From: Candidatus Latescibacterota bacterium
Lineage (GTDB): Bacteria > Latescibacterota > UBA2968 > UBA8231
Assembly: GCA_965243025.1 (NCBI GenBank)
Contig: CBDETY010000003.1
Coordinates: forward strand, 2,368,001-2,432,000
Direction of reading: 5' to 3'
DNA length: 64,000 bases
Shown piece after piece: positions 24,701-40,100 of this stretch (positions are counted from its first letter, which is position 1; each line of letters opens with the position of its first letter). The notes beneath the pieces were generated by a model. It worked only from the letters and a program-made list of their open reading frames with translations. It ran no database searches and was not told the DNA's origin. Position numbers and translations under genes: made by a program.

Positions 24701-26999
24701 GACCGAGCGCTGCCTGGAGCGGTGTCCTGCCGCTGTCGTCGAGGGCGTTCACGTCCGCGCCTCCCTCCAGCAACAGCCGCGTCGCTGCGGCGATGCACTG
24801 GTCGGCTGCCTCGTGCAGCGGTGTGCCCCGCCCCCCCCTTTCCAGTGGAATCGGTCCGTTGACTTGGGCGGGGTCCTTGTCGAGGTCCGCCTCGAGCCGC
24901 CCGTTGTGCTCGAGCATGACCAGGTGACCGAGGTGGTAGCGGCCGCCCGCATTCACCAGCGCCTCGAGGCAGGGGACATAAGTAGAGGAGCCTCCCGCCC
25001 GGGATCCTTCGCGCGCCGCCGCGTCGACAGGCGTGATGCCGGTGGAGCCGGCGCGGTTGGGATCGGCGCCGTGCGCGAGATACAGCTCGACCAGCCGCAG
25101 GTCGCCGAAGAAAGCGGCGTACCCCAGCGCCGACTCTCCGGCGCCGCGGGCCTGACCCCCTTCGGCATTGACGTCGGCCCCGTGCTCGATCAGCAGGCGG
25201 GCGATCTCGTACTTCCCGTCGCTGGCGGCTTCGGACATGCTGACGGCGCGATGCAGGAAGGTGCTGCCCCCGGCATGGGCATCCGGGGACAGGATGGGCG
25301 CCGCGGCCAGGCCGGGACTGCGGGCCAGCAGGGTCTCGACCGCGGCCACGTCCTCCCCGTTGATCGCCATCACCATGGCCAGCACGTCGGCGACCTCTTC
25401 GGCTGGGCGCCGCGGGTACTCCTCTCCGCCGTCGAAGGCGAACCCTTTCATGACGACGTCCCTCAAGGCGATGGCGCGCAGCGCCACCTTTTCGCCGGGT
25501 CGGGTGTGGTAGCGGATGAAGGGACGCACCGCCAGCCAGAAGTGGGCTTCACCGGTCACCGTTGTCTTGTTCGAGCCGGCCCCCAGAAGCGTCACGCCGC
25601 TGACGGGTTTCACCGGGTGATCGTAGGTGCCCGGCGCCAGGCGGACGGTATCGCCGTAGCTGGCCGCGTTCAGGCCTTCCCGAATGGATCGGAACGGCCG
25701 CTCCCGGGTGCCGTTTCCCCCCGGTGGGGCGTCGTCGTCGACGTGGAACTGCGTGCCGAAATCCGCGAACTGCAGGTCGAGGACCTTCTGCTCCCCGTCG
25801 GCAAGAGCCACTGCCGCCGGGTGCACCCCGGCTCCCCGGCCGGAACCCAGCTCGTACGAACCCGAAGGCAGATCGAACCGGTACCGACCCGTCGAGTCGG
25901 TTCGGGTCATCGCCACCAGGCGGCCACCGGCGGAAACCGCCAGGTCGACCCCGCCCGCCGCCCGGTCTCCGGCGCGAACCACGCCGCCCAGGCCGGTCAG
26001 GGACAGGTCTGCGACGTCGATCGCCCCGAGTGCGCTCACGTCGGCGATATCGATACCGGAGCCGTCGAAGACGAGCCGCCTGCCGTCGGGGGACCAGCGC
26101 GGGCCCGTATGCCGGCCATCCGAGGCGGTCAGTCGCAGCGGAGACCCTCCCGCGAACGGCGCCGCCCACAGCTGGAAACCCCCCGCCCCCTTCGAACAGA
26201 AGGCGATCCAGCGGCCGTCGGGAGACCAGCTGGCGTTGTAGCTCTTCTGCTGAAGGGAGGTGACCCTTCGCAGCGCGCCGCCGATCATGGGAACCGCCCA
26301 GATCTCGCTCCACCCGCCGCGGTCGGAATTGTAGACGATCCATCTTCCGTCGGGAGACCAGTCGGGGTCGGAACCGTTGTACCCATCCGGGAGGAGCCTG
26401 CGTTTCTCACCGCCGACGGAAGGGATGACCCAGAGCTCGCGGGTCCTGCGCTGGGAAGCGAAAACGATCTCGCGCCCGTCGGGCGACCAGCCGGCGGGGA
26501 GTGCATGCGGTGGTACGAGGTCGTCTTCGTCGGCAGTGATCCGCACCGGTTTCGCTTGCGACCGGAACGGCTCGATGGTCCACAGGTTCCAGGCGCCGTT
26601 GCGGTTGGAGGCGAAGAGCAGTTTCCGACCGTCCGGAGACCATCGAGGGACCCGGTCCCACGCCGGATCGGTGGTCAGGCGAATGCGCTCTCCGCCGGCG
26701 GCCGGTTCGATCCAGATGTCGTAGTTGCCGCCGTGCATGACGCCGCAGGCGATCCACTTGCCGTCGGGCGACCAGTCGGCGTGGAACGTGTTTTCTCCGG
26801 GACGCGCGGAGAACTCGCTGATCGGAACGTCGCGGGCGATGTTGAAGCCGGCCGGGGATCGATTGACCGGCTCAGGCGGGGTCGCTCCGGCAGGGCCGGC
26901 GTACGGGGCCGGAATCAGCGGGGCGAGCGCGGCGGGCAGCAGGAAAAGGCGGACCAGGGCGGTTCCCAGGAACCGGTTGCGAGCATTGATGATGTTCAT
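21702..26999 (-). CDS. Large secreted protein: two TolB-like/PD40 propeller + DUF1565-like + ankyrin modules, C-terminal LamG-like domain
   Basis: Many WSPDG repeats, two VDDDA..GG.G..ERPF.I.E.LNA segments, ankyrin repeats (GTPLHEAA, GADVNA), LamG-like AGTYDGSRMRVYVNG...IDDVEIWN; GAGGAG RBS before ATG 26999. Confidence 0.82.
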   Translation of the reverse strand: MNIINARNRFLGTALVRLFLLPAALAPLIPAPYAGPAGATPPEPVNRSPAGFNIARDVPISEFSARPGENTFHADWSPDGKWIACGVMHGGNYDIWIEPAAGGERIRLTTDPAWDRVPRWSPDGRKLLFASNRNGAWNLWTIEPFRSQAKPVRITADEDDLVPPHALPAGWSPDGREIVFASQRRTRELWVIPSVGGEKRRLLPDGYNGSDPDWSPDGRWIVYNSDRGGWSEIWAVPMIGGALRRVTSLQQKSYNASWSPDGRWIAFCSKGAGGFQLWAAPFAGGSPLRLTASDGRHTGPRWSPDGRRLVFDGSGIDIADVSALGAIDVADLSLTGLGGVVRAGDRAAGGVDLAVSAGGRLVAMTRTDSTGRYRFDLPSGSYELGSGRGAGVHPAAVALADGEQKVLDLQFADFGTQFHVDDDAPPGGNGTRERPFRSIREGLNAASYGDTVRLAPGTYDHPVKPVSGVTLLGAGSNKTTVTGEAHFWLAVRPFIRYHTRPGEKVALRAIALRDVVMKGFAFDGGEEYPRRPAEEVADVLAMVMAINGEDVAAVETLLARSPGLAAAPILSPDAHAGGSTFLHRAVSMSEAASDGKYEIARLLIEHGADVNAEGGQARGAGESALGYAAFFGDLRLVELYLAHGADPNRAGSTGITPVDAAAREGSRAGGSSTYVPCLEALVNAGGRYHLGHLVMLEHNGRLEADLDKDPAQVNGPIPLERGGRGTPLHEAADQCIAAATRLLLEGGADVNALDDSGRTPLQAALGQGDECGGVVELLRAAGAAQPVYRSSADFDIAGDVPISEFAALPVREEHADWSPDGKWIAYGANHEGNRDIWIKPVSGGDPVRITSDLGNDRVPRWSPDGGKLLFASDRGGRWNLWTVAPFSGESSLIKITKDEDAVISHALPAGWSPDGNEIVFTGSRGGYELWIASAAGGDRRQLDTHGLRGWDPDWSPDGRWIAFNAHGEEGYAKLWAIPAAGGEVRRLTSLAQNSYNPAWSPDGRWIAFTARDQGPFNLYAIPFAGGPLVQLTDSTAGHIGPRWSPDGGRLVFESHRGDIAIAEVGDLDLAEERAGRIARMEIEHGGAHWYVDDDAQVGGDGSEERPFRTIGEALNASSRGDTVRLAAGTYSQPLELVSGVTLLGAGADSTRVAGEAHFGLALRPFIQYYERPGADEGLFSVGLRDVAMEGFTFDGGEEYPSRPAEEVAAQLALAMAADRNDVAAAEALLERDPGLAASRILSPDAPAAGSTFLHRIVGAYGTSAEDVEIARLLIARGADVNAEGGQARGSGESALGYAGFFGSPPLVQLYLEHGGDPDYVSSTGNSVVSATAHEGSHVMGKRYLDCLDLLIAAGGRFDLVHLVMLDYRERLGEELERDPSRVDEWKPLGHGGEGTPLHEAADHCNGDMAALLLERGAGVDAVDSDGRTALMRAADQCRDEPDRDGPDSSRIILVLVEAGAAIDLGTAIILGDVEKARALIESDPQLVNRRRRGWTPLDLAVRHGRPEIGRLLREAGAGFAQNLEAMLREAPPGHGVHEVLSQSPAAKTAPGYIELKPSPSLDITDEITLAAWVYRLGERGTVIGKWYQRGSWSYVLHLPGNGFHLHWEDRTQTNIRGFTLPYLEWAHYAGTYDGSRMRVYVNGELAAERAVPGKRINSTDSPVWIGASGYLDSTPALIDDVEIWNIARTQEEIRQSMRRGLKGDEPGLVAWLPMEEDPPGDRSPHGNHGFLQGEAALHSTGVPGDERRAPDRVLWLLPFASGDAE

Positions 27000-27091
27000 C
27001 CCCGTCTCCTCGTTATTTCCTCTCGGTGTTTCCCGCCTCAGGTCTCGAGTCCTCGTTGGCGAAACCATACAGAAAAGGCGGTCCTGCTCCC

Positions 27092-28258
27092 TCAAGGCTC
27101 CTGCGGCAGCCTGTCGATCACCGAAATCGTGCGGTCGGAGTTGGCGACGTAGACGAAACGCCCGTCCGGACTGACCAGGGCGATTGCAGGCGAGCTGCCG
27201 ACCGGAATGGTGGCGGCAACCTCGTGCGTCTCCAGGTCGATCGCGGACACGGTCTCGTCGATCAGGTTGGCGACGTAGAGAGTCTCGCCGCCGGGCGTCA
27301 TCCCGACGGTTCCCGGAAAGCGGCCCGCGGGAATCGTCTCCCTCACCGCAGCTGCCGGCACGTCCCATACGGAAACGTAGTCGCTGTCCGGCAGGGCTGC
27401 GTACACCAGGTCGCGGTCCGGGTGAACGGCGAACGAGGGATACGGGCCGAGGCGGACGGCGAGATCGGCGGCGACCTCGAGGGATGCAGTGTCGACGACG
27501 ATGAGGGCGCCGGCCCCGGCGTACCCGACGTACAGGCGGCTGCCGTCGCGCGAGGAGCGGACCGCGGCGTACCCCGACTGCGCAAGACCGGTGCCCACCG
27601 TCTTCGTCACCTCCCGGGCCGAAAGATCGACCACCGCGATTTTCGAGCTGTCCCAGCCGACGGCGAATCCCCGCCGGCTTCCCGGGGGAATGAACATTCC
27701 CAGCGGCCGCAGCCGGTCCGGGATCGGGACGGCGCCGACGACCTCGTTGCTCGAAGTGCTTATCACCGAAATGTCCTCGGCGTTGGCGCCGCTGCCGTCG
27801 ATGTTGGCGACGTAGGCGAACCTGCCGTCGGGCGAGATCGAGATCCCGCCCGGCCCGCGGCCCACGGGGATCACCCTCGATACCTGGTTGCCGGAGGTGC
27901 TTATGGCGATTATCTCGTCGGTCTGGTTCTGGTTGACGTAGAGCGAGCGGCCGTCGGGTGTAATCGCCAGGTCGCAGTCGAGGAACCCGGTACCCGTGGT
28001 CTCTGTCTCCCCCAGGTCGATGGTTTCGACGACCTCGTGCGAGCGCCCGTCCACGACCGAAACGAAGTGGCCGTAACAGTTCATCACGTAGAGGGTCCCG
28101 CTGTCCGGGGTCATGATCCCCTCGGAGAACTCGAGCGGGATCGAAGCGACCACCCTGCCGGCGTCATACTCCGGGCTGGCAACCGGGGAGCGCCCCTCGT
28201 CACACCCCCACGCCAGCAGTGCGAGCCCGAATACGGGCAGCCATTGTTTATTCCCCAT
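27092..28258 (-). CDS. YVTN/YncE-type beta-propeller lipoprotein
   Basis: Lipobox AWGC; repeats TPDGRSLYV, SPDGRFAYVAN, TPGGETLYVAN, IPVG. Confidence 0.85.
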   Translation of the reverse strand: MGNKQWLPVFGLALLAWGCDEGRSPVASPEYDAGRVVASIPLEFSEGIMTPDSGTLYVMNCYGHFVSVVDGRSHEVVETIDLGETETTGTGFLDCDLAITPDGRSLYVNQNQTDEIIAISTSGNQVSRVIPVGRGPGGISISPDGRFAYVANIDGSGANAEDISVISTSSNEVVGAVPIPDRLRPLGMFIPPGSRRGFAVGWDSSKIAVVDLSAREVTKTVGTGLAQSGYAAVRSSRDGSRLYVGYAGAGALIVVDTASLEVAADLAVRLGPYPSFAVHPDRDLVYAALPDSDYVSVWDVPAAAVRETIPAGRFPGTVGMTPGGETLYVANLIDETVSAIDLETHEVAATIPVGSSPAIALVSPDGRFVYVANSDRTISVIDRLPQEP

Positions 28259-28287: not shown

Positions 28288-29517
28288 ATGAGCCTGCAAG
28301 CAGAGGCCGGGCGCAGCCGCCCGGATTTCACCCTGTTCGTTCCCCCTGAGGGGGAGGCCGGCGTCGAGCGGAACAACATGCACCTCGTCGTCACCCCCCT
28401 GCCGGACGGGGACTTCCTGGCGACCTGGACCCAGGCGAGCGAACCCCACGGCCCGGACCAGCGCGTGGTGGTGGCGCGCTCCGGCGACTGCGGCCGCACC
28501 TGGAGCCCCCCCGAGGTGATCGACGGGCCCGAGCCGGGCACCGAAAACATCGCCAGCTGGTCGATGCTCGTGCCCGTTCCCGGCGGCAGCAGGGTCTACT
28601 GCCTCTACCACAAGAACACCGGCATCGTCGACTACGACCGCGCCATGACCGGGGTGCTGGCCTGGCGCTGCTCCGAGGACGGCGGCCGCACCTGGGGTGA
28701 GCGCTTCCAGGCCCCGATCGGGCGCGGGGCCGTCGACCACAGCGACTCCTCCGTCCCGGGCAACTGGGTTACGGCGGGCTGGCAGCATCCCATCGCCGCC
28801 GGCAGCGGTCTGATCCTCCCCGTAACCCGCTGGGCGAGCCGCGAGCACCGCTTCCGGGAAGGGTTCGCCGACCAGCACCACGAGGGCTGGTTCCTGCGCT
28901 TCGACAACATCCTCGAGGAAGCGGATCCCTCGCGGCTGTCGATCACCACCCTGCCCCGGGGGGACCGCGGCATCCGCATACCGTCCCCTTCCGACCCGGA
29001 GGTCAGCGCCGCCATGGAGCCGGCGGTGCAACCCCTGGCCGGAGGCCGCCTCGTCTGCCTGCTGCGCACCGTGACCGGCTTTGTCCACTACTCCCAGTCC
29101 GGGGATCTCGCCGAATCCTGGAGCGAGCCCAGGCCTCTCTGTTTCCACCCCGGCGGCCCCCGGGTGCCGCATCCGAACGCCCCGGTCGGCTTCCACCGGA
29201 TGGCGGACGGCCGCTTCCTGCTGCTTTTCCACAACAACGACGGCACCGCCAACGGCTGCAGCGGTCCGCTCGACTGGAAGGCGCGGCGGCCGGTCTACGC
29301 CAGCGTCGGCAGCGAGATCGACAATCCCGGGGGGCAGCCGCTGGCCTTCACGGAACCGCGGTTCTTCTACGACAACGGCGGCCCCGAGCGGCCGTATGCC
29401 GGGTCGCTGGCGCTCTACGGAACCTTCTTCGAGCACGACGGCGTCCGCTACTGGTGGTACCCGGACGCCATCCGCTTCCTGCTCGGGCGCGTGGTGCCGG
29501 ACGACCTGGTGGCTTGA
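28288..29517 (+). CDS. Sialidase-like / BNR (Asp-box) repeat protein
   Basis: Asp boxes SGDCGRTW, SEDGGRTW, SGDLAESW. Confidence 0.75.
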   Translation: MSLQAEAGRSRPDFTLFVPPEGEAGVERNNMHLVVTPLPDGDFLATWTQASEPHGPDQRVVVARSGDCGRTWSPPEVIDGPEPGTENIASWSMLVPVPGGSRVYCLYHKNTGIVDYDRAMTGVLAWRCSEDGGRTWGERFQAPIGRGAVDHSDSSVPGNWVTAGWQHPIAAGSGLILPVTRWASREHRFREGFADQHHEGWFLRFDNILEEADPSRLSITTLPRGDRGIRIPSPSDPEVSAAMEPAVQPLAGGRLVCLLRTVTGFVHYSQSGDLAESWSEPRPLCFHPGGPRVPHPNAPVGFHRMADGRFLLLFHNNDGTANGCSGPLDWKARRPVYASVGSEIDNPGGQPLAFTEPRFFYDNGGPERPYAGSLALYGTFFEHDGVRYWWYPDAIRFLLGRVVPDDLVA

Positions 29518-29983
29518 GGCGTCTCCCGGGAACCTTCGTCGATTCGGCCCTTCAGGGTTAAAGCCTGGCATGGTCCTGAGATTCAGTCTTCGGGCACCCG
29601 GGATTTTTTAGTGCAAGCTTTAGCCATCTGCGGCGGGCTGCTAAAGAGTCTTCAGCTCCGGATTGGCCAATCGCGTTACCCACGCCGGACATGCGGGGCC
29701 ATTTCCAGGACAGGGAAAAATCTCGAACAAAGCGGCCAGATTTTGTCCCCTTGTACTTAATTCCTGCTCCTGTCTTTCATTGCTGCCTTTTTTCAATCTC
29801 CGCATTCAAGCGCAGGCCGGCATTGAACCCTGTCGATGCGAAGCACGCTGAATGGTGTCGGTGTATGGGACGGCCTGATGGTCAGGGTGGCTGAATGCAA
29901 AAATTGAATTTGACCTGCCGTACCCATCCTGACTAGGATACTGGCCGTGCAGAGGTTGGCCCTGCATTCCAGTCAGAGGTGCC

Positions 29984-31327
29984 ATGATGCTTCGATCCCT
30001 TTCCCTCGTCATGGTGCTGACCGCAATGGCTGCGCCCGCTGCTTCAGCGCAGCCCTTCCCTGCGGCAGCCCCGGAAACCGACACCACCGACGTCTACGAG
30101 ACCCGGCGCAATCACGTTCTCGCATTCCCGAAGTACGTCTGGGACGCGCTGGTCTTCCCGATCGGCAAGTTCACCATCTGGCTCGAGCGGAAGGAGATTC
30201 CCCAGCGGGTGATCGAGATGTTCACCTTGGAGGATGTCTTCGAGGTGTATCCGTATGGGACCCTGGGCGGAGAGACGGGAACGGCCGGCGGCGTTTCATT
30301 GCTTTACGGCGACCTGTTCGGCCGCGGCAAAGGGATCTCGACCAGCTTCATCGCCAACTCCTCCAACTACAGCGGATTCGTCCTGTTCGAGGACCCGGGG
30401 ATCGGCGGCGGTCCCTGGTACTGGAACGCCTCTCTCGAGGCGCTGAAGACGGGGAACGAGAACGCCACCATAAACGGCGAGCTGCGCAAGTCGGGGTCCC
30501 TGCTCGAGCACGAGCAGCGTGATACGAGGCTCACCCTCGGGCGCCGCTCCAACTACGGGGTGACCGAAGGGTACGAACCGGATGCCGTCGTCGAGCTGCG
30601 GCTGTCCCACGGCTTCCGCAAGTTCGCCTCCGGAGATCTCCACCCCGGCCGCTTTCCCGGCCTGAACCGGGCGATCAACCTGTTCTCGGTCGGCGCCATG
30701 GCCGCCTTCGACGACCGGGACTTCAAACCCCCTGCCGCCTCGATCAGTCTTCCGCTGAACTACCAGCTGCCGGGGCGGGTGCTGCTTTTCGCCGACGACC
30801 GTTACTACAGCTTTCGCGACACCGCCTTCCCCGAGCACGGCGGGTTCGCCCGCGTCGAGGCCGACTACGCAACCGGCTCCGATGACGTTCGCTACTTCCG
30901 CTACACTGCGGAGCTTCAGCGCTTCTTCACCCTGTTCTTCAGGGACCGCATCCTCGGTATCCGGGCCCGGCTCGACAGGGCGCACGCCCTCGGAGACGGC
31001 GGCATCGTCCCCTACTCCGACATGCCCGACCTCGGGGGAGGCGACCGCCTGCGCGGGTACCGCCGCGGGTTCTTCCGCGGCGCCGGCAGTCTGCTGTTGA
31101 GCGCCGAATACCGCTACCCGATCTGGGACACCTGGAACGCCTTCCTCTTCCTGGAGGAAGGGCAGGTGTTCGACAGGTACGGCGACATCGAACCGGGCCG
31201 GTTCGAGTACAGCTACGGCGCCGGCATCAGCGTGCGCACCGAGCGCGCCTTCCTGTTCGGGGTGCGCATCGCCCGCAGCAGGCAGGAGAAGGCGTTGACC
31301 GGCTTCTCGCTGGAAAAGGAGTTCTGA
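29984..31327 (+). CDS. Omp85/BamA-TamA family outer-membrane beta-barrel, no evident POTRA domains
   Basis: Signal peptide (ASAQ), LGGGDRLRGYRRGFF (VRGY/F loop), SAEYRYPIW, YSYGAGI, C-terminal Phe. Confidence 0.82.
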   Translation: MMLRSLSLVMVLTAMAAPAASAQPFPAAAPETDTTDVYETRRNHVLAFPKYVWDALVFPIGKFTIWLERKEIPQRVIEMFTLEDVFEVYPYGTLGGETGTAGGVSLLYGDLFGRGKGISTSFIANSSNYSGFVLFEDPGIGGGPWYWNASLEALKTGNENATINGELRKSGSLLEHEQRDTRLTLGRRSNYGVTEGYEPDAVVELRLSHGFRKFASGDLHPGRFPGLNRAINLFSVGAMAAFDDRDFKPPAASISLPLNYQLPGRVLLFADDRYYSFRDTAFPEHGGFARVEADYATGSDDVRYFRYTAELQRFFTLFFRDRILGIRARLDRAHALGDGGIVPYSDMPDLGGGDRLRGYRRGFFRGAGSLLLSAEYRYPIWDTWNAFLFLEEGQVFDRYGDIEPGRFEYSYGAGISVRTERAFLFGVRIARSRQEKALTGFSLEKEF

Positions 31328-33003
31328 TGGGCTCCCGGCGAGGCCTCATGCTGCCTGTCCTTGTGCTGTTGCTGCCCAACGCGGCGGCGGCCGGCCCGGA
31401 CCTGACCACCGATCCAATCAAGTGGTTCGACGCCGACAACAAGACGATCCCGGAGCCGGCCGAGGCGAAGGAGAACAAGGTCTGGGACTTCATCGACAAA
31501 TCCTCCTTTTACCAGGTCGGCAAGGTGCTGGACCTGGGGTGGACGGCGCGCCGGATCGGAGACCTCCTCGGCGTCGTCGGGCCGCGCCAGGCCGACAACG
31601 TCAACGCCCTCGACGAGGTGCCCAACTCCTCCTGGTTCACCAACCGGCACTTCCTGCAACCGATGACCCTCGAGGAGCTGGCGGAGGGACCCGGCTTCGC
31701 CGAACCGGACGACAGCGGCCCCTGGGAGGTCGTCGCCGGCAAGTTCGAAGGGATCACCGCCGGCTTCACCATCAAGGACGCCTCGAAGCGGTACTTCCTG
31801 CTCAAGTTCGATTCCAAAGGGAACGACGAGATGGGATCCGGGGCCGAGGCGGTGGTCACCAAGGTGCTGTACGCCGCCGGCTACAACGTGCCGCGCAACT
31901 CCGTCGTCTACTTCGACCCCGGACAACTGCAGATCGGACCCAAGGCCAGGGTCCCGGACGGGGAGGGCGGCAAGCGGCCGATGACCCCGAAGGATCTCCG
32001 GAAAATCCTCGACCACATCGCGCCGCAGCCGGACGGCACCCTGCGCTGCCTGGCCAGCCGGTTCCTCACCGGCAAGCCGGTCGGTGTCTTCAACTACAAC
32101 GGCAGGCGCCGGGACGACCCCAACGACCGGGTCGACCACGAGCACCGGCGCGAGCTGCGCGGCCTGCGCGTCATCGGCTCCTGGCTCAACGATGCCGACC
32201 GCCGGGCCGCCAACACCCTCGACATGTACGTGACCGGGGAGGCCGGCCGCCGCTACGTCCGCCACTACCTGATCGACATGGGCTCCGCCCTCGGCAGCGG
32301 CAGCTGGAGACCGCACCAGCCCAAGCACGGCAACGAGTACATGGTCGACCCGCGCACGATCCTGCGGTCGCTCCTGTCGCTGGGGTTCTACATGAAGAAG
32401 TGGGAAGAGCCGGTGCCGATGCCGTACACCTCGCTCGGTTATTTCGAGAACGAGACGTTCAGTCCCGGGGGATGGGTGCCGGACTATCCCAACCCCGCCT
32501 TCGAGCGCTGCACCGCCCGGGACGGGTACTGGGGCGCCAAGATCGTCATGGCCTTCCGCGACGACGAGATCCGCGCCATGGTCGAGCGGGGGCGCTACTC
32601 GGATCCGGGCGCCGCCGACGAGCTGACCCGTCTGCTGGCGGAGCGGCGGGACATGATCGGGCGCTACTGGTTCGAACGCGTCAACCCGCTGGACCGCTTC
32701 GAAATCGAGGGGGGCCGGCTGCGGTTCGCCGACCTCGCCGTGGATGGGGGGCTGGCGCCGCGCGCCTCGCGGCAGTGGCGGTGTGCTGTCGTCGCTGCCG
32801 ACGGGGACGAGGCTGGCGAGCCGCGGCGGCTGACCGGGCCGGTCGTCCCGGTCGGCGAGGAGGCGCGGCCCGGGCAGTTCTTCGGCTACCGGCTGCAGAG
32901 CCGCAGCGGCGACAGGGGGAGCTGGAGCAAGGATACCACGGTGTTTCTCTACAAGCACGAGGACGGCCGTCTGCAACTGGTGCAGATCGACCGCGAGGAG
33001 TGA
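31327..33003 (+). CDS. Exported protein with atypical kinase (PI3/4K-HipA-like) motifs
   Basis: Signal peptide (AAAA|G); GKFEGITAG, YFLLKFD, AEAVVTK, GYNVP, WLNDADRRAANTL, YLIDMGSALG; TGATG coupling to upstream gene. CDS is confident, function is inferred. Confidence 0.65.
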   Translation: MGSRRGLMLPVLVLLLPNAAAAGPDLTTDPIKWFDADNKTIPEPAEAKENKVWDFIDKSSFYQVGKVLDLGWTARRIGDLLGVVGPRQADNVNALDEVPNSSWFTNRHFLQPMTLEELAEGPGFAEPDDSGPWEVVAGKFEGITAGFTIKDASKRYFLLKFDSKGNDEMGSGAEAVVTKVLYAAGYNVPRNSVVYFDPGQLQIGPKARVPDGEGGKRPMTPKDLRKILDHIAPQPDGTLRCLASRFLTGKPVGVFNYNGRRRDDPNDRVDHEHRRELRGLRVIGSWLNDADRRAANTLDMYVTGEAGRRYVRHYLIDMGSALGSGSWRPHQPKHGNEYMVDPRTILRSLLSLGFYMKKWEEPVPMPYTSLGYFENETFSPGGWVPDYPNPAFERCTARDGYWGAKIVMAFRDDEIRAMVERGRYSDPGAADELTRLLAERRDMIGRYWFERVNPLDRFEIEGGRLRFADLAVDGGLAPRASRQWRCAVVAADGDEAGEPRRLTGPVVPVGEEARPGQFFGYRLQSRSGDRGSWSKDTTVFLYKHEDGRLQLVQIDREE

Positions 33004-33021
33004 GGAGAAAGGACTAAAGCA

Positions 33022-34455
33022 ATGGACGTTCTGGGGTTCGGTTTTTTTCAGGGTTTCATGCACTACCTCGGCGTGCTGCAATGGCCGCTGGTCGCCGTCT
33101 TCCTGCTCTTCATCGCCTGGCAGATACGGGGGTTCGCCCCGGAAGAGCGGCTGCAGACCGCCCTGATGTTTGCCTACTTCTTCCTGGTGATCACGACCTT
33201 CTGGATCCTCAAGCCGATCAAGAAGGGGCTCTTCATCACCTACTACAAAGGGGTCGGAGGCTTCGACCTGCTGGGCTGGAACCTCGACCCGGCGCAGGCC
33301 GAGCTGCTGGCCAAGGTCCTCAACATGGCGGTCGCCGCCGCGGCGGTCGCGGTCTTCACCCTGCTCGCCCGTTCCTTCCGGCGCCAGCAGCTCACCTTCA
33401 TCCTGTCGGGATTCTTCATCCTCTGTTACCTGGTCTACAGCTTCCTCCTCGACGGTGCCGGCGGCGGCACCGTCTGGACCTTCTACCTGTTCGGCGACCT
33501 GTTCAGCACGTTGATGGTCGCCACCTTCTTCGCCTTCCTCAACGACAGCGTCGATCCCTCTTCCGCCAAGCGTCTCTACGGACTGATCGGTCTCGGGGGG
33601 GTTTCGGGAGGTTTCTTCGGCAGCGCCGTGGTCGGCGTCAACGTCAAGAGCCTGAGCCCGGCGCTGTCCATGTGGCTGTGCCTGGCGATCGCCGTCGCCA
33701 TCGCGCTGATCGCCATGGCAGCCGGCCGGGTGGTCAGCCGCAAGCTGGCGGCGCAGGAACCCGGGGAAAGCAAGGAGGAGGAAGCCTCCGATTCTCAGGC
33801 CGCCCCCGCCGAGAGTCAGCCGCAGGGCAACCCGGCATGGGAAGGGGCGCGGCTCGCCCTGCGCTCCCCTTACTTGTTGTCGGTGGTGGCCATCGTCGGT
33901 CTCTACGAGATGGTCTCCACCATAATGGACTTTCAGTTCACCTCGACGGTGCTGCACTACCTCGAGGGGCCCCAGATCGGAGAGCATTTCCCGCGCGTGT
34001 TCACCTTCACCAACATGGTCGCCCTCGTCGTGCAGCTGTTTCTCACCAGCTTCGTGATGACGCGGTTCGGCGTCGGCACGGCGCTGCTGTTCCTGCCGGT
34101 CGCCGCCCTGCTCGGTTCCGCCGGGTTCCTGATCGCCCCGGTGCTTCTCATGGGAAGCCTGCTGAACACGACCGACAACGGCTTCAGCTACTCGATCAAC
34201 CAGTCGGCGAAGGAAGCCCTCTACGTTCCCACCACGCGGGACGAGAAGTACAAGGCCAAGGCCTTCATCGACATGTTCGTGCAGCGGTTCGCCAAGGCTC
34301 TGGCGGTCGGCCTGAGTCTTCTGATAACGACCCTCTTCGCGGGGTTCTCGAGCATCCGCTGGCTGTCGCTGGTGACCGCGGCCATCCTGGTGCTGTGGAT
34401 CCTCGCCGCCATTTACGCCGGCCGCACCTTCCGCGCGAAGGAAGAAGCAGCCTGA
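33022..34455 (+). CDS. Npt1/Npt2 (TLC ATP/ADP translocase-like) nucleotide transporter, MFS fold
   Basis: About 12 TM helices; ILKPIKKGLF, FFAFLND...AKRLYGLIGLGG..GG..G, YSINQSAKEALYVP...KYKAKAFIDMFVQRFAK, typical of the TLC family. Confidence 0.8.
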   Translation: MDVLGFGFFQGFMHYLGVLQWPLVAVFLLFIAWQIRGFAPEERLQTALMFAYFFLVITTFWILKPIKKGLFITYYKGVGGFDLLGWNLDPAQAELLAKVLNMAVAAAAVAVFTLLARSFRRQQLTFILSGFFILCYLVYSFLLDGAGGGTVWTFYLFGDLFSTLMVATFFAFLNDSVDPSSAKRLYGLIGLGGVSGGFFGSAVVGVNVKSLSPALSMWLCLAIAVAIALIAMAAGRVVSRKLAAQEPGESKEEEASDSQAAPAESQPQGNPAWEGARLALRSPYLLSVVAIVGLYEMVSTIMDFQFTSTVLHYLEGPQIGEHFPRVFTFTNMVALVVQLFLTSFVMTRFGVGTALLFLPVAALLGSAGFLIAPVLLMGSLLNTTDNGFSYSINQSAKEALYVPTTRDEKYKAKAFIDMFVQRFAKALAVGLSLLITTLFAGFSSIRWLSLVTAAILVLWILAAIYAGRTFRAKEEAA

Positions 34456-34462
34456 TCCGGCG

Positions 34463-35416
34463 TCAGGGGCGCTGCTTCGGCAGATTCAGCGGGGGCTGCG
34501 GCGGCTCTTCTTCGCCGGGGGGATGCTCGAGCGTGACGTGGCGGTAGGCGAACTCGATCCGGTCGTTCCGGTTGAAGGCCTCGATGACTCTCCCAAGAAT
34601 GTCACTGGCGATTCGTTCCCGATCGACCGCTATGGACTGGTACCGCACCCGCATGGTGATCCCCGAATGGAAGAGCTCGGCCCGGACAAAGGGCGTCTCC
34701 CCGGTCTCCTCGATGATTTCCCGGGTCACCTCGGTGGCGCAGTCGATGAGGGTCTGCTCGACCGATCGAAAATCCGAGCGATAGGAGACCCGCACCGGCA
34801 CCTCATCGAGAATGTACTTGGCCTCCTCGAGAGAGTCCGTGTCCGCGTAGTTGATGACCATCTGGTCGAACAGCAATGCATTGGGGATCAGGATAATCCG
34901 CTTGGATGCTTCTTCCCCGGGGATGGTCCCGCCCACTTCCCCCAGCAGAATGTGGCTGGGACTGATGTCGAGCACGTCGCCCGTCACCTCCTGAAAGATG
35001 ATGCGGTCACCGATCTGGAAGGGCCGCTTCATCATGACCATGATCCAGGCGGCCACCCCGGTCACGGGCCGTTGCAGGGACCAGCCCATGAGCATGCCGA
35101 GGAAGCCCAGGCCCAGTCCCATGGCAGCGAATGAACCCGACAGGCTGATGACCAGGAGGATGATCCCTGACAGCACGAAGGCGTACTTCAGCAGGGAGTG
35201 GGCCCTGTGGACCTGGACCTCGCGGCGACCCTGGCGCCGCATGGCCCCCAGGACGAAGCGTTTGGTGATCCTGTAGATGAGCACCGTAACCGTCAGCACC
35301 AAGGCGCCCGGGAGGAGATAGACGATCACGTCCACGACATCCCTGCCCATTTCGGGGACGTGATGGGCGACCCATCCCTGCGTGGTGTCCACCAGGCTGG
35401 CTACTTCCTCGTTCAT
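34463..35416 (-). CDS. Small-conductance mechanosensitive channel family protein
   Basis: 3 TM segments, RPFQIGDRI, GDVLDI, IPNALL; convergent with the transporter. Confidence 0.85.
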   Translation of the reverse strand: MNEEVASLVDTTQGWVAHHVPEMGRDVVDVIVYLLPGALVLTVTVLIYRITKRFVLGAMRRQGRREVQVHRAHSLLKYAFVLSGIILLVISLSGSFAAMGLGLGFLGMLMGWSLQRPVTGVAAWIMVMMKRPFQIGDRIIFQEVTGDVLDISPSHILLGEVGGTIPGEEASKRIILIPNALLFDQMVINYADTDSLEEAKYILDEVPVRVSYRSDFRSVEQTLIDCATEVTREIIEETGETPFVRAELFHSGITMRVRYQSIAVDRERIASDILGRVIEAFNRNDRIEFAYRHVTLEHPPGEEEPPQPPLNLPKQRP

Positions 35417-35969: not shown

Positions 35970-36956
35970 ATGCTCATATCAGATGCGATCCACAAAGCGG
36001 ATCGGCTCGAACAGATCAAGGTACTGTTTCGGCGGCGGCCCGAAGGGGTAGGAACCGGGGAAATCGCCCGACTTTTGGGGGTGAGCCAACGGACGGCCCG
36101 GCGCTATGTGAAGGAGCTGTCGGAGCGGGGACGGCTCCCGGTATACCGGGAGGGCCGCGTCTGGAGGCTGGTGGAAGGCGGGCACATCGACCTGCTTCGC
36201 ATCCAGCTGAACCTCGACGAGGCCCTCTCGCTCTACCTGGCGGCGCGGATGCTGTCGGCCTACAGCGACAAGCACAATCCACATGTGGTTGCGTCCCTGC
36301 TCAAGCTCGCCGCAACCCTGCCCGACGCCATCGGAGAGCACGTCGAGCAGGCGGCCGTGGCTGTTTCCCAAAGGCGGCTTGCCCCGGACTACCTGAAAGT
36401 TCTGGAAGGCCTTACCCGGGCATGGGCGGGCCGGCGGCAGGTGCAGCTGGTTTATCGCGATCCCATCACCGGGGAGCGCTCCGAGCGCCTGTTCGATCCC
36501 TTCTTCATCGAGCCCTCCTTCGTGGGCTATTCCTGTTATGTGTTCGGGTTCGATCACTTCCGCCAGGCGATCCGCTCATTCAAGGTCGAGCGGCTGGAAG
36601 ATGTAGAGGTGCTCGATACCCGCTTCGAGCCTCTGCCGGACTTCGACCCCTACGACTACCTCAAGCACTCCTGGGGAATCAGGGGCGGCGACGAGGTAGT
36701 GGAAGTGAAGCTGCGCTTTTCCAGAAACGCGGTCTACCGGGTGAATGAATCGGACTGGCCCGGGGTTGTTGCCCACGAGGAAGACCGGGAGGGGCGCTGT
36801 ACGCTGACGTTCCTGGTCAATCACGTCCTGGAAATCAAGTCCTGGATCAGGGCATGGGGACCGGAGTGCGAGGTGCTGTCCCCGGAGGAATTGCGCCGGG
36901 AGATCGGGGAGGAGATGAAGGCAGCGAGGGAACTGTATGCAGACAACGAGGAATGA
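35970..36956 (+). CDS. WYL-domain transcriptional regulator (wHTH-WYL-WCX)
   Basis: HTH EIARLLGVSQRTARRYV, ERLFDPFFI...CYVFG...IRSFKVERL, WIRAWGPECEVLSPEELR; GGAGGAG RBS. Confidence 0.9.
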   Translation: MLISDAIHKADRLEQIKVLFRRRPEGVGTGEIARLLGVSQRTARRYVKELSERGRLPVYREGRVWRLVEGGHIDLLRIQLNLDEALSLYLAARMLSAYSDKHNPHVVASLLKLAATLPDAIGEHVEQAAVAVSQRRLAPDYLKVLEGLTRAWAGRRQVQLVYRDPITGERSERLFDPFFIEPSFVGYSCYVFGFDHFRQAIRSFKVERLEDVEVLDTRFEPLPDFDPYDYLKHSWGIRGGDEVVEVKLRFSRNAVYRVNESDWPGVVAHEEDREGRCTLTFLVNHVLEIKSWIRAWGPECEVLSPEELRREIGEEMKAARELYADNEE

Positions 36957-37137: not shown

Positions 37138-40100
37138 ATGAAGGTTGCGATCGGCTGTCTCGTATGGTTGTTGTCGAGCCTGCAGGCGGAGGCCGAGCCC
37201 TTGGTCGAGGGCCGGGTGAGACTGGCCTCGGGGGATCCCGCCGCCGGGGCTCAGGTGCTGCTGTTCGATCTGAACGACCTGCGCCTGGCGCCGGCCGTGG
37301 CGACGACGGATGAGGCGGGATACTTCTCTCTGCCATTCGGGGGATTGCGGGGGCGGGTGCCGGTCCTGCCGGAGCGGTTCGAGCTGGGCCATAACTACCC
37401 CAATCCGTTCAATCCTTCCACCATCATCCCCTACCAGCTGCCGGCCCCGACCCGGTTGCGGCTCGAGATCTTCAATATCCTCGGACAGCGGGTGACGACC
37501 CTGGTCGACGGGGAACGTCCGGCCGGTTTTCACACCGCCCGCTGGGACGCCACCGATGCGGCGGGGCGGGCGGTGGCCGCGGGAGTCTACTTCTACCGGC
37601 TGAAAGGGGACGGGGTTCACCTGACTCGGCGCATGGTGTTGATCGACGGGCAGGCCGGGATTCCTTCGGCCGGGGGGAGCGGTCCATCCACCGCCGCCGG
37701 GGAGGAGGTGGAAACGCCCCCGGTGGTCGGGTTGACCGTCTCGGGAGAGGGGCTGGTCCCCTACCTCGACCCGGCCTTCCGGGTAGAGCCTGGAATGGCG
37801 CCCGTGGAGGTTGTCGTCGAAGCCCTGGGCGGGGTCCGGCATGGGAAGGTGGCCTCCAGCGGAATCCTGGGGGACGTCGACAACAACAGCCGGGTCGACA
37901 TTTTCGACGCCCTGCTGGTTGCCGTGTACAGCGCCAATCCCAGCCTCGTCATGCCGAACAACGGGGATATAACCCTCGGCGACGTCAACCGGGACGGCCG
38001 CACGGATCTCACCGACGCCTACCACATCGCCGCCTACACAGTCGATCCCTCAGACCCGACGCTGCCTCCAGGAATAGGGGAAGCCCTGGTCCAGGGGACG
38101 GGGACCGCATCGCTGTCCCCCCCGCCCTCCACCGTCTCCTTCGAGGACGACGGAGCATGGCACCGGTTTACGGTCCGGGCAGGCGAGTCGATCGTGGTGG
38201 TTGCCAACCCCACCGGAACCACCCCGCGCGTGGAGATCAACGCCACCAGCGGTTCCAATTACTGTCCGGCCGAAGCCGAGGACGACCGGGCGCGCCAGGA
38301 CGGCGAGGAAGTCTACCTCGCCGGCTGCTCCTCTGGAACGGGTACAGTTGAACTGCGGCGGGCGTCCGACCAGACCGTTCTGCAGACCTATACCTTCACG
38401 ATACGGGGACAGGGAACAGGTGGAGGGGGCGGCGGCACCGGCCCCGACCTGGTCGTCGAGCCCCCTGCGGTCAGCAACAGCAGCCCCACTGCCGGAGCCT
38501 CCTTCACCCTGAGGGCCAGAGTCCGCAACCAGGGAGCCGCCCGGTCCAGCTCGACCACCCTGCGCTACTACCGCTCCACCGACGCCACCGTTTCCACCAG
38601 CGACACCCAGGTCGGAACCGACCCGGTCAGCAGCCTGTCCGCCTCCCGCACCAGCTTCGAGTCGATCAGCCTGCGCGCCCCCTCCAGCGCCGGCACCTAC
38701 TACTACGGGGCCTGCGTCGAGAGCGTCAGCGACGAAACCGATACCGGAAACAACTGCTCCGCTTCCGTAACCGTTACCGTGGGAGCGGCCCCTGCCCCGG
38801 ATCTCGTCGTCGAGACCCCTACGGTCAGCAACGGCAGCCCGACCGCCGGAGCCTCCTTCACCCTGAGGGCCAGGGTCCGCAACCAGGGAAACGGCCGGTC
38901 CAGCTCGACCACCCTGCGCTACTACCGCTCCACCGACGCGACGGTCTCCGCCAGCGACACCGAAGTCGGCACCGATCCGGTCAGCAGCCTGTCCGCCTCC
39001 CGCACCAGCTCCGAGTTCATCAGCCTGCGCGCCCCCTCCAGCGCCGGCACCTACTACTACGGAGCCTGCGTCGAGAGCGTCAGCGGAGAAACCAATACCG
39101 GAAACAACTGCTCCGCTGCCGTCACCCTGACCGTGGGCGCCGCACCCGCCCCGGATCTCGTCGTCGAGACCCCTACGGTCAGCAACTCCAGCCCGGCCGC
39201 CGGAGCCTCCTTCACATTGAGGGCCAGGGTCCGCAACCAGGGAAACGGCCGGTCCAGCTCGACCACTCTGCGCTACTACCGCTCCACCGACGCGACGGTC
39301 TCCGCCAGCGACACCCAGGTCGGAACCGACCGGGTCAGCAGCCTGTCGGCTTCCCGGACCAGTTCCGAGTCGATCAGCCTGCGCGCTCCATCCAGCGCCG
39401 GCACCTACTACTACGGAGCCTGCGTCGAGAGCGTCACCGGAGAAACCAATACCGGAAACAACTGCTCCGCTTCCGTCACCCTGACCGTGGGCGCCGCACC
39501 CGCCCCGGATCTCGTCGTCGAGGCCCCTACGGTCAGCAACTCCAGCCCGGCCGGCGGAGCCTCCTTCACCCTGAGGGCTACGGTCCGCAACCAGGGTGCC
39601 GCCCGGTCGGGCTCGACCACCCTGCGCTACTACCGCTCCACCGACGCCACCGTTTCCACCAGCGATACCGAAGTCGGCACCGACCCGGTCAGCAGCCTGT
39701 CCGCCTCCCGCACCAGTTCCGAGTCGATCAGCCTGCGCGCCCCCTCCAGCGCCGGCACCTACTACTACGGGGCCTGCGTCGGGAGTGTCAGCGGAGAAAC
39801 CAATACCGGAAACAACTGCTCCGCTGCGGTGGCCGTAACCGTGCCCGGAACCGTCACTCAGCCGCCCCCCCAACCGGGAGTGGCGAAGCTGTACTGGTCG
39901 GACTGGGGCACGGACAAGATCCAGCGCGCCGACCTCGACGGCTCCAATGTCGAAGACCTGGTAACAGGCGCCGGACTGGACGGCCCGGACGGGCTGTCCC
40001 TGGATCTGGCCGGCGGCAGGATCTACTGGGCGGATGCCGGCACCAACAAGATTCAGCGGGCCAACCTCGACGGCTCGGGGGTAGAGGACCTCGTCACCGG

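Follow-up and report, generated by a model that had tools for sequence, protein, structure and literature searches.

An exported kinase-like protein paired with a POTRA-less Omp85 barrel, and its partial linkage to a TLC-like carrier, in a Latescibacterota genome

Three consecutive genes at positions 29984 to 34455 of a 64,000-nucleotide stretch of DNA from a Candidatus Latescibacterota bacterium (the window; assembly GCA_965243025.1, contig CBDETY010000003.1, positions 2,368,001 to 2,432,000 of the forward strand) encode, in this order, a POTRA-less Omp85 barrel (gene 1), a protein with a predicted kinase-like fold (gene 2) and a carrier resembling the TLC/NTT nucleotide transporters (gene 3). 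Gene order and structural models give good support to the view that the products of genes 1 and 2 would form a two-part outer-membrane machine, in which an exported enzyme sits on the periplasmic side of the barrel. No system characterised so far is like it. The linkage of gene 3 to this pair is real but partial, and the export of ATP by the carrier to feed the enzyme is a plausible hypothesis. An earlier note on this DNA, made from the sequence alone, had proposed an extracytoplasmic phosphorylation system with its own nucleotide supply; what it observed is confirmed by our analysis, and its interpretation is partly supported.

Pairing of the barrel and the kinase-like protein

The gene neighbourhood was followed through 80 loci (one genome per species scan, 497 confirmed relatives, 86 copies of gene 2). 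An Omp85 gene of the gene-1 subfamily immediately precedes gene 2, in the same orientation, in 72 of the 75 copies that have at least 1200 nt of upstream sequence. Among the three exceptions, no barrel gene was found upstream in two (L039 and L040), and in the third (L094) the barrel is located about 1 kb further off. In the genomes of the relatives, Omp85 adjoins gene 2 in 14 of 16 loci. The two parts are also found in a single polypeptide: in the natural fusions P0270 and P0276 a signal sequence or lipobox is followed by the kinase-like domain, an FN3-like domain and a C-terminal Omp85 barrel, which matches the profile of gene-1 orthologues at E 1.2e-87 and 1.4e-37, respectively. Because this domain order is opposite to the order of the genes in the operon, the fusions are not read-through artefacts.

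A model of the complex between the mature products of genes 1 and 2, for which an alignment of each protein was supplied, agrees with the gene order. The interface score ipSAE reached 0.71, 0.71 and 0.70, compared with 0.00 for the best control, and the mark set for this score is reached by 58 of 80 solved complexes and by 2 of 110 mismatched pairs, although it has to be held against this evidence that the score expresses the model's own confidence and is not a measurement. Between runs at least 64% of contacts are shared, the pLDDT (predicted local distance difference test) of the partner is at least 88, and the interface comprises 83-113 confident contacts. Gene-2 residues 32-74, 90-91 and 99 are among them, residues 32-74 facing the N-terminal helices 36-69 of Omp85, and barrel residues 318-322 and 378-388 contact residues 260-273 and 333-361 of gene 2. 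Because loop L6 of the barrel lies between strands 322-335 and 368-379, barrel residues 318-321 and 380-383 are taken as periplasmic turns. Residues 23-110 of gene 2 (31393..31656, + strand) form a highly conserved region, here called the docking region, which is disordered in the monomer (pLDDT 42-59) and becomes ordered against the N-terminal helices of Omp85 in the complex model.

The model supports docking of the enzyme to the periplasmic side of the barrel, at the place where other Omp85 proteins carry POTRA domains, and the existence of a barrel-enzyme complex, taken alone, is in our estimation highly likely. The earlier note had left the barrel three possible roles, those of translocator, anchor and substrate channel. 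The model favours a docking platform over a translocator, as gene 2 is placed on the periplasmic turns and the N-terminal helices.

The barrel protein

Gene 1 (29984..31327, + strand; 447 aa) matches the Pfam Omp85 family PF01103 with 44.8 bits (cut-off 24), and falls below the BamA equivalog TIGR03303 (23.3 bits versus a cut-off of 297) as well as under the cut-off of the NCBIfam Omp85 subfamily. In its AlphaFold2 model (33 orthologues in the alignment, pLDDT 78.5) a signal peptide of approximately residues 1-21 and N-terminal helices 44-69 and 72-79 precede 16 long β strands; a further, short hairpin is located at 266-277. Loop L6 (336-367) bears the motif LRGY at positions 355-358, of which R357 and G358 are invariant among the 33 orthologues, and F389 and D391 of β13 are nearly so. 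A Foldseek search with the model matched BamA, TamA, Sam50 and Toc75 at E 5e-13 to 1e-9 (BamA and TamA at 5e-13). The PF01103 match, the predicted 16-strand barrel, the (V/L)RG(F/Y) motif of L6 and the β13 motif are those expected of a member of the Omp85 superfamily.

No POTRA domain was found in gene 1, nor is there space for one; the approximately 60 residues that precede the barrel are modelled as helical. Because POTRA is absent and the score against TIGR03303 is low, gene 1 is assigned to the POTRA-less ('noNterm') class, as this class is described in the consulted part of Heinz and Lithgow (PMC4104836), and not to the BamA, TamA or TpsB classes. The POTRA-less Omp85 identity already suspected from the bare sequence is thus borne out by the Pfam match, the structural model and the Foldseek search.

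The kinase-like protein

Gene 2 (31327-33003, + strand; 558 aa) was modelled with AlphaFold2 from 30 homologues (pLDDT 79.7, predicted template modelling score 0.83), and the model was compared by VIA-align with 48,161 representative chains of the PDB. Fourteen of the top 15 rows are atypical protein-kinase-like enzymes, with Z between 8.9 and 12.9. The best match is CtkA (Z 12.9, 220 aligned residues, root-mean-square deviation (rmsd) 3.9), followed by DrFam20C1 and Fam20C (Z 12.3, 257 aligned), Hydra Fam20 (Z 12.0), CotH (Z 11.0), PI4KIIalpha (Z 10.7 and 10.4), actin-fragmin kinase (Z 10.3), HipA (Z 10.1 and 9.2), HipT (Z 9.7) and MavQ (Z 8.9). In Foldseek, Fam20C ranked first (E 4e-4) and SidJ was also among the matches. 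The kinase fold that the earlier note had asked to be searched for in this protein is therefore recovered by both structural comparisons. The nearest named Atlas clusters, at about 0.8, are Fam20C, HipA_2, PI3_PI4 kinase and LepB_N, and these are leads only.

The predicted kinase-like core spans residues ~116-452 (31672..32682), and is supported by VIA-align, Foldseek and conservation. It contains, in the order first read from the sequence, a Gly-rich loop GKFEGITAG (138-146), LLKFD with K160, AEAV with E174, the catalytic loop NDADRRAAN (288-296), which holds D291 and N296, and LIDMG (315-319), where Asp317 of IDMG is the predicted metal-binding residue. Mapped onto the model by the order of secondary-structure elements and not by superposition, the Gly-rich loop connects strands 133-138 and 146-150, K160 ends strand 156-160, E174 is located within helix 169-184, D291 and N296 follow helix 275-287, and D317 comes after two further strands. 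The catalytic loop of the D-R-x-x-x-N type and the ID(x)G metal-binding motif presumably correspond to those of PI4KII and HipA. A bilobal fold, the Gly loop with the β3 Lys and αC Glu, and a catalytic Asp...Asn with a metal-binding Asp are the features by which the protein-kinase-like (PKL) superfamily is recognised, and all of them are present in the model. The C-terminal residues 453-546 (32683..32964) are modelled as an FN3/Ig-like β sandwich, which VIA-align matches to FN3 and cytokine-receptor domains (Z 8-9.7, rmsd 2.2-3.1); Pfam fn3 was detected in one of 30 members, at E 0.0099.

Conservation was examined at two depths. In 30 homologues of gene 2, positions G142, G146, K160, D291, R292, R293, N296, D317 and G319 are invariant in the core, and in the docking region so are D35, D37, P44, W53, D54, D69, D90, N91, N93 and E97, together with S101, S102, W103, R107 and H108. 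Among 130 representatives of 50%-identity clusters, which are 38-55% identical, K160 is retained in 92%, D291 in 94%, N296 in 93%, and D317 and H313 in at least 95%. The earlier note would have been contradicted by the loss of the Lys, Asp and Asn residues in homologues, and they are kept in 92-94% of these representatives. The most conserved block of the protein is formed by residues 261-278 (window 32107-32160), where R261, D264, D267, H271, R274, R275 and R278 are each present in at least 95% of the 130; this block is located just ahead of the catalytic loop and partly within the predicted barrel interface.

The family is large and carries no name. At E<=0.001 it comprises 2976 proteins among 8000 scored candidates in a 90%-identity database, and 2974 clusters in a 50%-identity library, 833 of which remain at E<=1e-30; the source names of all relatives are 'hypothetical protein'. 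Gene 2 exceeds the cut-off of none of the named families Fam20C (PF06702), HipA_C (PF07804), PI3_PI4_kinase (PF00454) and CotH (PF08757). Since it fits no named-family model, the modelled fold would make it a new family within the PKL superfamily, with CtkA/HipA, Fam20, CotH and PI4KII as its nearest folds. Aligning the 130-sequence gene-2 alignment with two HipA alignments by hhalign gave probabilities of 0.4% and 0.1%, values that bear neither way on homology, the HipA alignments being built from crude open reading frames (ORFs) of loci L109-L138 (three long, many truncated short).

Export of gene 2 is predicted by its sequence and appears to be general across the family. Residues 1-22 (31327..31392) form a Sec-type signal peptide, which is signal-peptidase-I-like in the window copy, and in agreement with the signal first noticed there a hydrophobic N-terminus is found in 228 of 236 full-length homologues. 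A lipobox-like Cys is present in 89 of the 236, by a rough pattern that admits some false positives.

Two further architectures were observed in the family. Proteins P0250 and P0271-P0275 (~1120-1180 aa) have a kinase-like part with a C-terminal extension of about 600 residues that matches neither Pfam nor the Omp85 profile. P0264 (955 aa) lacks the docking region and has a GT4 glycosyltransferase joined to the N-terminal side of its kinase-like core; this is possibly a hint of glycan substrates, or possibly a fusion made by gene calling.

The carrier and its linkage to the pair

Gene 3 (33022..34455, + strand; 477 aa) encodes a TLC/NTT-like carrier of the MFS. It matches PF03219 (TLC) with 71 bits (cut-off 21) and MFS_1 with 32.6, and phmmer relates it to solved chains of 'ADP,ATP carrier protein 1' at E 3.3e-16 (9j3n_A) and 7.8e-11, the alignment with 9j3n_A covering the signature blocks AKRLYGLIGLG, RSPYLL and KEALYVP...KYKAKAFID. 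A Kyte-Doolittle scan gives 14 peaks, several of them overlapping, where about 12 helices are expected of an NTT protein. Gene 3 is the only PF03219 match in its genome, both matches from that genome falling within it. By these sequence comparisons gene 3 would be a distant branch of the NTT family and a member of TLC at the level of the superfamily.

In 30 of 53 loci a TLC-like gene is found within 4.6 kb downstream on the same strand, directly adjacent in 17; counted more narrowly, one lies within 300 nt of gene 2 in 25 of 74 loci. A further three loci have it just upstream of the barrel gene. All 14 carrier neighbours that were sampled exceed the PF03219 cut-off. A strict regular expression for the TLC signature, which matched 17 and 20 of 56 ORFs, proved too strict a pattern. 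The triad occurs under the labels Latescibacterota, Gemmatimonadota, Bacteroidota, Ignavibacteria, Zixibacteria, KSB1, Calditrichota, Acidobacteriota, Krumholzibacteriia and Planctomycetota, at least ten groups of phylum or class level. Since a genome of about 5 Mb contains at most about five TLC-like ORFs, we estimate the chance of such adjacency at well under 1%.

The carrier genes are often doubled, a short carrier being accompanied by an NTT-HEAT fusion (~920-940 aa), and in 10 loci a small protein that binds cyclic nucleotide monophosphates (cNMP) follows; examples of the whole series after the pair are L064 8937-13196 and L071 7687-12229. The same series of NTT, NTT-HEAT and cyclic-nucleotide-binding domain proteins is described from free-living bacteria, without a function, in the consulted part of Major et al. 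(2017, PMC5381601). Here it is tied to an outer-membrane module.

Another protein joins the pair in a part of the loci. Directly after gene 2, and before the TLC genes, 16 of 80 loci encode an exported calcineurin-like metallophosphoesterase lipoprotein. These phosphoesterases fall into two sequence clusters of 10 and 6 members, and examples are L064 7699-8937, L083 4036-5325 and L065 7671-8807.

Organization of the locus

The ORF listing gives three reading frames on the + strand, at 29984-31327, 31327-33003 and 33022-34455. The stop codon of gene 1 and the start codon of gene 2 overlap by one nucleotide (ttcTGATGggc, with TGATG at 31325-31329), and genes 2 and 3 are separated by the 18-nt spacer ggagaaaggactaaagca before the ATG at 33022, in which a Shine-Dalgarno-like GGAGAAAGGA is found. 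The co-orientation, the overlap and the gap first read from the sequence are all exact by coordinates and by sequence.

Upstream of gene 1 there is an intergenic region of 466 nt with lower G+C. It contains a single promoter-like site (29910..29939, + strand; TTGACC, 18 nt, TAGGAT), which is weak, one such site being found where shuffled sequences give an expected 0.6. A terminator-like hairpin at 29589-29602 follows the preceding gene, which encodes a BNR-repeat (sialidase-like) protein (28288-29517, + strand). On the other side, an MscS-like mechanosensitive channel (34463-35416, - strand) is convergent on the three genes, and beyond it lies a helix-turn-helix regulator with WYL/WCX domain (35970-36956, + strand). 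Because the intergenic region with its terminator- and promoter-like sites is located on the 5' side and the convergent MscS-like gene on the 3' side, the three genes look like one transcription unit, a three-gene operon. The position of the MscS gene is kept in three related genomes (L014, L016 and L017) and that of the regulator in two (L014 and L016).

Contigs from an RNA library (metatranscriptome X20) are 88-97% identical to gene 2 and to the carrier gene; they differ at 11 of 417 positions in gene 2 (31662-32078) and at 18 of 259 in the carrier (33128-33386). These are contigs of relatives, an RNA library may contain DNA, and bins that are thinly covered carry no meaning; the evidence is weak, proves no transcription and gives neither start, strand nor co-transcription.

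A second Omp85-kinase pair is present in the same genome about 43 kb downstream, outside the window (L013 4619-7647; G000:C3 ~2441001-2444029), with 61% and 78% identity to the window proteins, and genome G001 shares this duplicated pair (L015). A PPK2 gene without a signal peptide (L013 3764-4585; PF03976, E 2.9e-105) ends 33 nt before the second Omp85 on the same strand. As a general neighbour of the pair PPK2 was rejected, since it is found near it only in its own genus (L015/L031) and in L090.

The operon is flanked in the window by two long ORFs with eukaryote-like repeats, each of ~1890 aa. The first (21702-27368, - strand) contains PD40 propellers, ankyrin repeats and a laminin-G-like domain, and the second (37138-42819, + strand) contains LDL-receptor class B repeats and seven CARDB domains. 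Between 42001 and 58000 the G+C content falls from ~0.66-0.70 to 0.56-0.60 and AT skew goes up, which suggests a compositionally distinct segment. Sequencing runs labelled as sponge metagenome hold sequence related to this DNA, with word shares of 0.25-0.34.

Proposed mechanism

The function that we propose for the machine would proceed as follows. The enzyme docked on the POTRA-less barrel would bind a Mg-nucleotide and use it to modify a target located within the outer membrane or next to it, by transferring either phosphate or some other group derived from the nucleotide; the target may be a lipid, a glycan or a protein on its way through the barrel. As the region of the activation segment touches the periplasmic rim of the barrel in the model, the active site is probably turned towards the mouth of the barrel or else towards the inner leaflet of the outer membrane. 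The nucleotide would be supplied, in the window and in over half of the related loci, by the inner-membrane carrier of the TLC/NTT type, which would move cytoplasmic ATP out and periplasmic ADP in. For an electrogenic exchanger of ATP4- for ADP3-, this direction would be favoured because the inside-negative membrane potential drives it, as in the mitochondrial carrier. Where the metallophosphoesterase lipoprotein is present, it may reverse the modification or trim the nucleotide products.

Several results weigh against this proposal, and they concern both the enzyme and its supply. Gene 2 has no match at all in Pfam and NCBIfam at E<=0.1. When 30 members of the family were compared with Pfam at E<=10, HipA_C was found in two of them, with a best E of 0.14, and neither phmmer nor a 30-sequence profile found a kinase among PDB sequences, the only matches being those expected by chance at E ~1. 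The model obtains low Foldseek TM-scores (0.21-0.29 by query length), a consequence of its several domains, and the pLDDT of the catalytic and activation region 281-340 is middling, with 10-residue block means of 49-86. As to the carrier, gene 3 scores 65.1 bits with the NTP/NDP-exchanger model TIGR00769, so far under the cut-off of 387.2 that its substrate cannot be inferred by homology. No TLC gene stands alongside the second pair of the same genome, and 23 of the 53 neighbourhoods have no TLC-like gene; the earlier note had expected the three genes to occur together, and this holds for the near-obligate Omp85-kinase pair (72 of 75) and in part for the carrier (30 of 53). In relatives G033, G036 and G037 the pair is present and TLC-like matches are weak (~22 bits), while among 41 relatives such weak matches are also seen in genomes that lack the pair, which leaves the co-occurrence profile of TLC and gene 2 unclean. 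Moreover, we know of no characterised NTT/TLC member that exports ATP from a free-living cell, and ATP in the periplasm would leak through porins.

With these points taken into account, the complete chain of barrel, enzyme and carrier-supplied ATP seems to us an open possibility, somewhat short of probable.

Alternative explanations

The first alternative is that the locus serves nucleotide uptake or scavenging. TLC-like carriers would import, the phosphoesterase would free or trim extracellular nucleotides, and the kinase-fold protein would bind or process them at an entry site formed by Omp85. According to the consulted part of PMC5381601, the characterised NTTs are all importers, or exchangers that serve uptake. 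In 16 of 80 loci an exported metallophosphoesterase lipoprotein is indeed encoded between the kinase-like protein and the carrier, a pure binding protein would likewise conserve the residues that hold Mg-ATP, and the related sequence in runs labelled as sponge metagenome makes a host-associated lifestyle possible. However, Omp85 barrels are not known to conduct solutes, and gene 1 retains the lid-lock motifs by which they are occluded. Asp291, the predicted catalytic base, is kept in 94% of representatives, although a mere binder has no need of it, and the core pair does without a carrier in 23 of 53 loci. Furthermore, the family is spread through free-living lineages of sediment, soil and saline habitats, where free nucleoside triphosphates are scarce. 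Taken together, these observations make uptake an unlikely function of the locus.

A second alternative places the enzyme outside the cell: as in type V secretion, the barrel would translocate the kinase-like protein (or, in the fusions, the N-terminal domain) to the cell surface or into the medium, to act on targets of a host or of the environment with extracellular ATP, and the link to the carrier would be secondary. The fusions P0270 and P0276, in which an N-terminal enzyme resembles a passenger and a barrel of 16 strands follows at the C-terminus, have the layout of PlpD and type Vd systems; the title of its entry describes CtkA, the structure that matches best, as a secreted kinase. About a third of the gene-2 homologues are lipoproteins, which some bacteria display on their surface, and the flanking genes encode eukaryote-like proteins with ankyrin and LDL-receptor repeats. 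We nevertheless regard this alternative as improbable, considering that the barrel has no POTRA domain, that Pfam detects no domain of the two-partner secretion (TPS)/haemagglutination-activity type in gene 2 or in 30 homologues, and that the complex model seats a folded enzyme on the periplasmic turns with 83-113 confident contacts. It would also leave the linkage to an inner-membrane carrier and to an exported phosphoesterase unexplained.

Thirdly, the kinase fold may be put to another use. Gene 2 may be a scaffold (a surrogate of POTRA, or pseudokinase) for an Omp85 that handles or inserts a particular set of lipids or proteins of the outer membrane, or else it may transfer nucleotidyl or glutamyl groups in the manner of SelO or SidJ. 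If it were only a scaffold, it would not be expected to keep K160, D291, N296 and D317 over 130 divergent clusters, even if the block of highest conservation, R261-R278, falls in part within the barrel interface, and even if a role of noNterm Omp85 proteins in the biogenesis of membrane proteins, as proposed in the consulted part of Heinz and Lithgow (PMC4104836), would suit such a scaffold. The transferase version has in its favour that kinase-like folds carry out AMPylation and glutamylation in known families, that SidJ is among the Foldseek matches, and that the homologue fused to a GT4 glycosyltransferase points to glycan chemistry. Yet these chemistries still need a periplasmic nucleotide, and they differ from the phosphate-transferring machine proposed above only in the group that is moved. 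As a whole, this third alternative appears about as improbable as outward translocation.

Finally, chance neighbourhood with coincidental motifs is scarcely conceivable, given the synteny of the barrel in 72 of 75 copies and of the carrier in 30 of 53 loci across many phyla, the fusions, the fold match at Z 12.9 and the conserved motifs.

Relation to known systems

On the level of whole systems, the closest analogies to the barrel-enzyme machine are probably the secretory-pathway kinases with their lumenal ATP import and the Omp85 proteins that carry enzyme domains, such as PlpD. Fam20C and Fam20B resemble gene 2 as kinase-like enzymes with a signal peptide that act outside the cytosol, and in fold (Z 12.0-12.3, 257 aligned), and importers of the endoplasmic reticulum and Golgi bring ATP into the lumen for the kinases of the secretory pathway. 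Gene 2 differs from them in having no PF06702 match, in its predicted periplasmic position docked on Omp85, in its FN3-like C-terminal domain and in the TLC/NTT type of the associated carrier. PlpD of type Vd and the Omp85-metalloprotease class likewise join a 16-strand Omp85 barrel to an enzyme, as P0270 and P0276 do; in the present system POTRA is absent, enzyme and barrel are mostly separate genes, and the enzyme has a predicted nucleotide-dependent fold.

Regarding the enzyme itself, CtkA (12.9), HipA (10.1) and PI4KIIalpha (10.7), the type II PI4K, are among the best fold matches, but those kinases act in the cytoplasm or on a host, with no barrel as partner, and HipA_C is recognised in only two of 30 members (E 0.14). 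The CotH kinases of the spore coat (fold Z 11.0) are also bacterial atypical kinases that act on an extracytoplasmic structure; CotH acts in the mother cell during spore assembly, with neither barrel nor carrier, and gene 2 is not a member of that family by sequence.

With respect to the barrel, the Leptospira noNterm Omp85 paralogues, as far as described in the consulted part of PMC11358297, have conserved lid-lock motifs and downstream lipoprotein genes, and thus share with the present locus a POTRA-less barrel gene that is followed by a gene for an exported protein or lipoprotein. Their neighbours are DUF1566 and Big/integrin-like lipoproteins and not kinase-like proteins; that part of the paper reports no carrier gene and uses the word 'kinase' 0 times. 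The word 'kinase' is likewise absent from the text of the Omp85 classification paper (PMC4104836), as consulted.

Finally, the NTT/TLC transporters treated by Major et al. (2017, PMC5381601, consulted in part) are like gene 3 in matching PF03219, and the related loci contain the same series of NTT, NTT-HEAT and cNMP-binding proteins, whereas the window carrier is far under the exchanger cut-off. In the consulted part of that paper the outer membrane, export and extracellular roles each have 0 occurrences, and no link to an Omp85-kinase pair is made.

In the literature searched (a limited collection that did not include supplementary tables) no account was found of Omp85 paired with a kinase, nor of a kinase in the periplasm that is accompanied by a nucleotide carrier, and no single paper of that collection combined 'Omp85' with 'kinase-like'. 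The impression recorded in the earlier note, that no characterised system has this composition, therefore persists within that collection.

Significance

The outer membrane and the periplasm are taught as compartments free of ATP, and the known machines of the outer membrane work either on energy drawn from the inner membrane (TonB, Lpt) or with no energy input (BAM). This picture would be overturned by a nucleotide-dependent enzyme on an Omp85 barrel, all the more so if the gene next to it encodes a nucleotide carrier, in lineages from at least ten phylum-level groups. A wider generalisation, which we put forward tentatively and think rather doubtful at present, is that many diderm bacteria run a small periplasmic ATP economy, where an inner-membrane NTT-type exchanger exports ATP and retrieves ADP, a kinase or ATPase on a POTRA-less Omp85 is driven by it, and an exported metallophosphoesterase acts as the eraser. 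In that case the system would be the first Omp85 machine powered by nucleotides and, among bacteria, the first one dedicated to phosphorylation outside the cytoplasm. Cultured Balneolaceae carry the cluster (loci L065 and L071), which makes these ideas directly testable.

The machine would provide the first functional context both for the noNterm Omp85 proteins and for the NTT and NTT-HEAT carriers of free-living bacteria. Even if the carrier imports, there would remain a new kinase-like family of about 3000 clusters without a Pfam model, together with its near-obligate barrel partner, and thus a new kind of outer-membrane complex.

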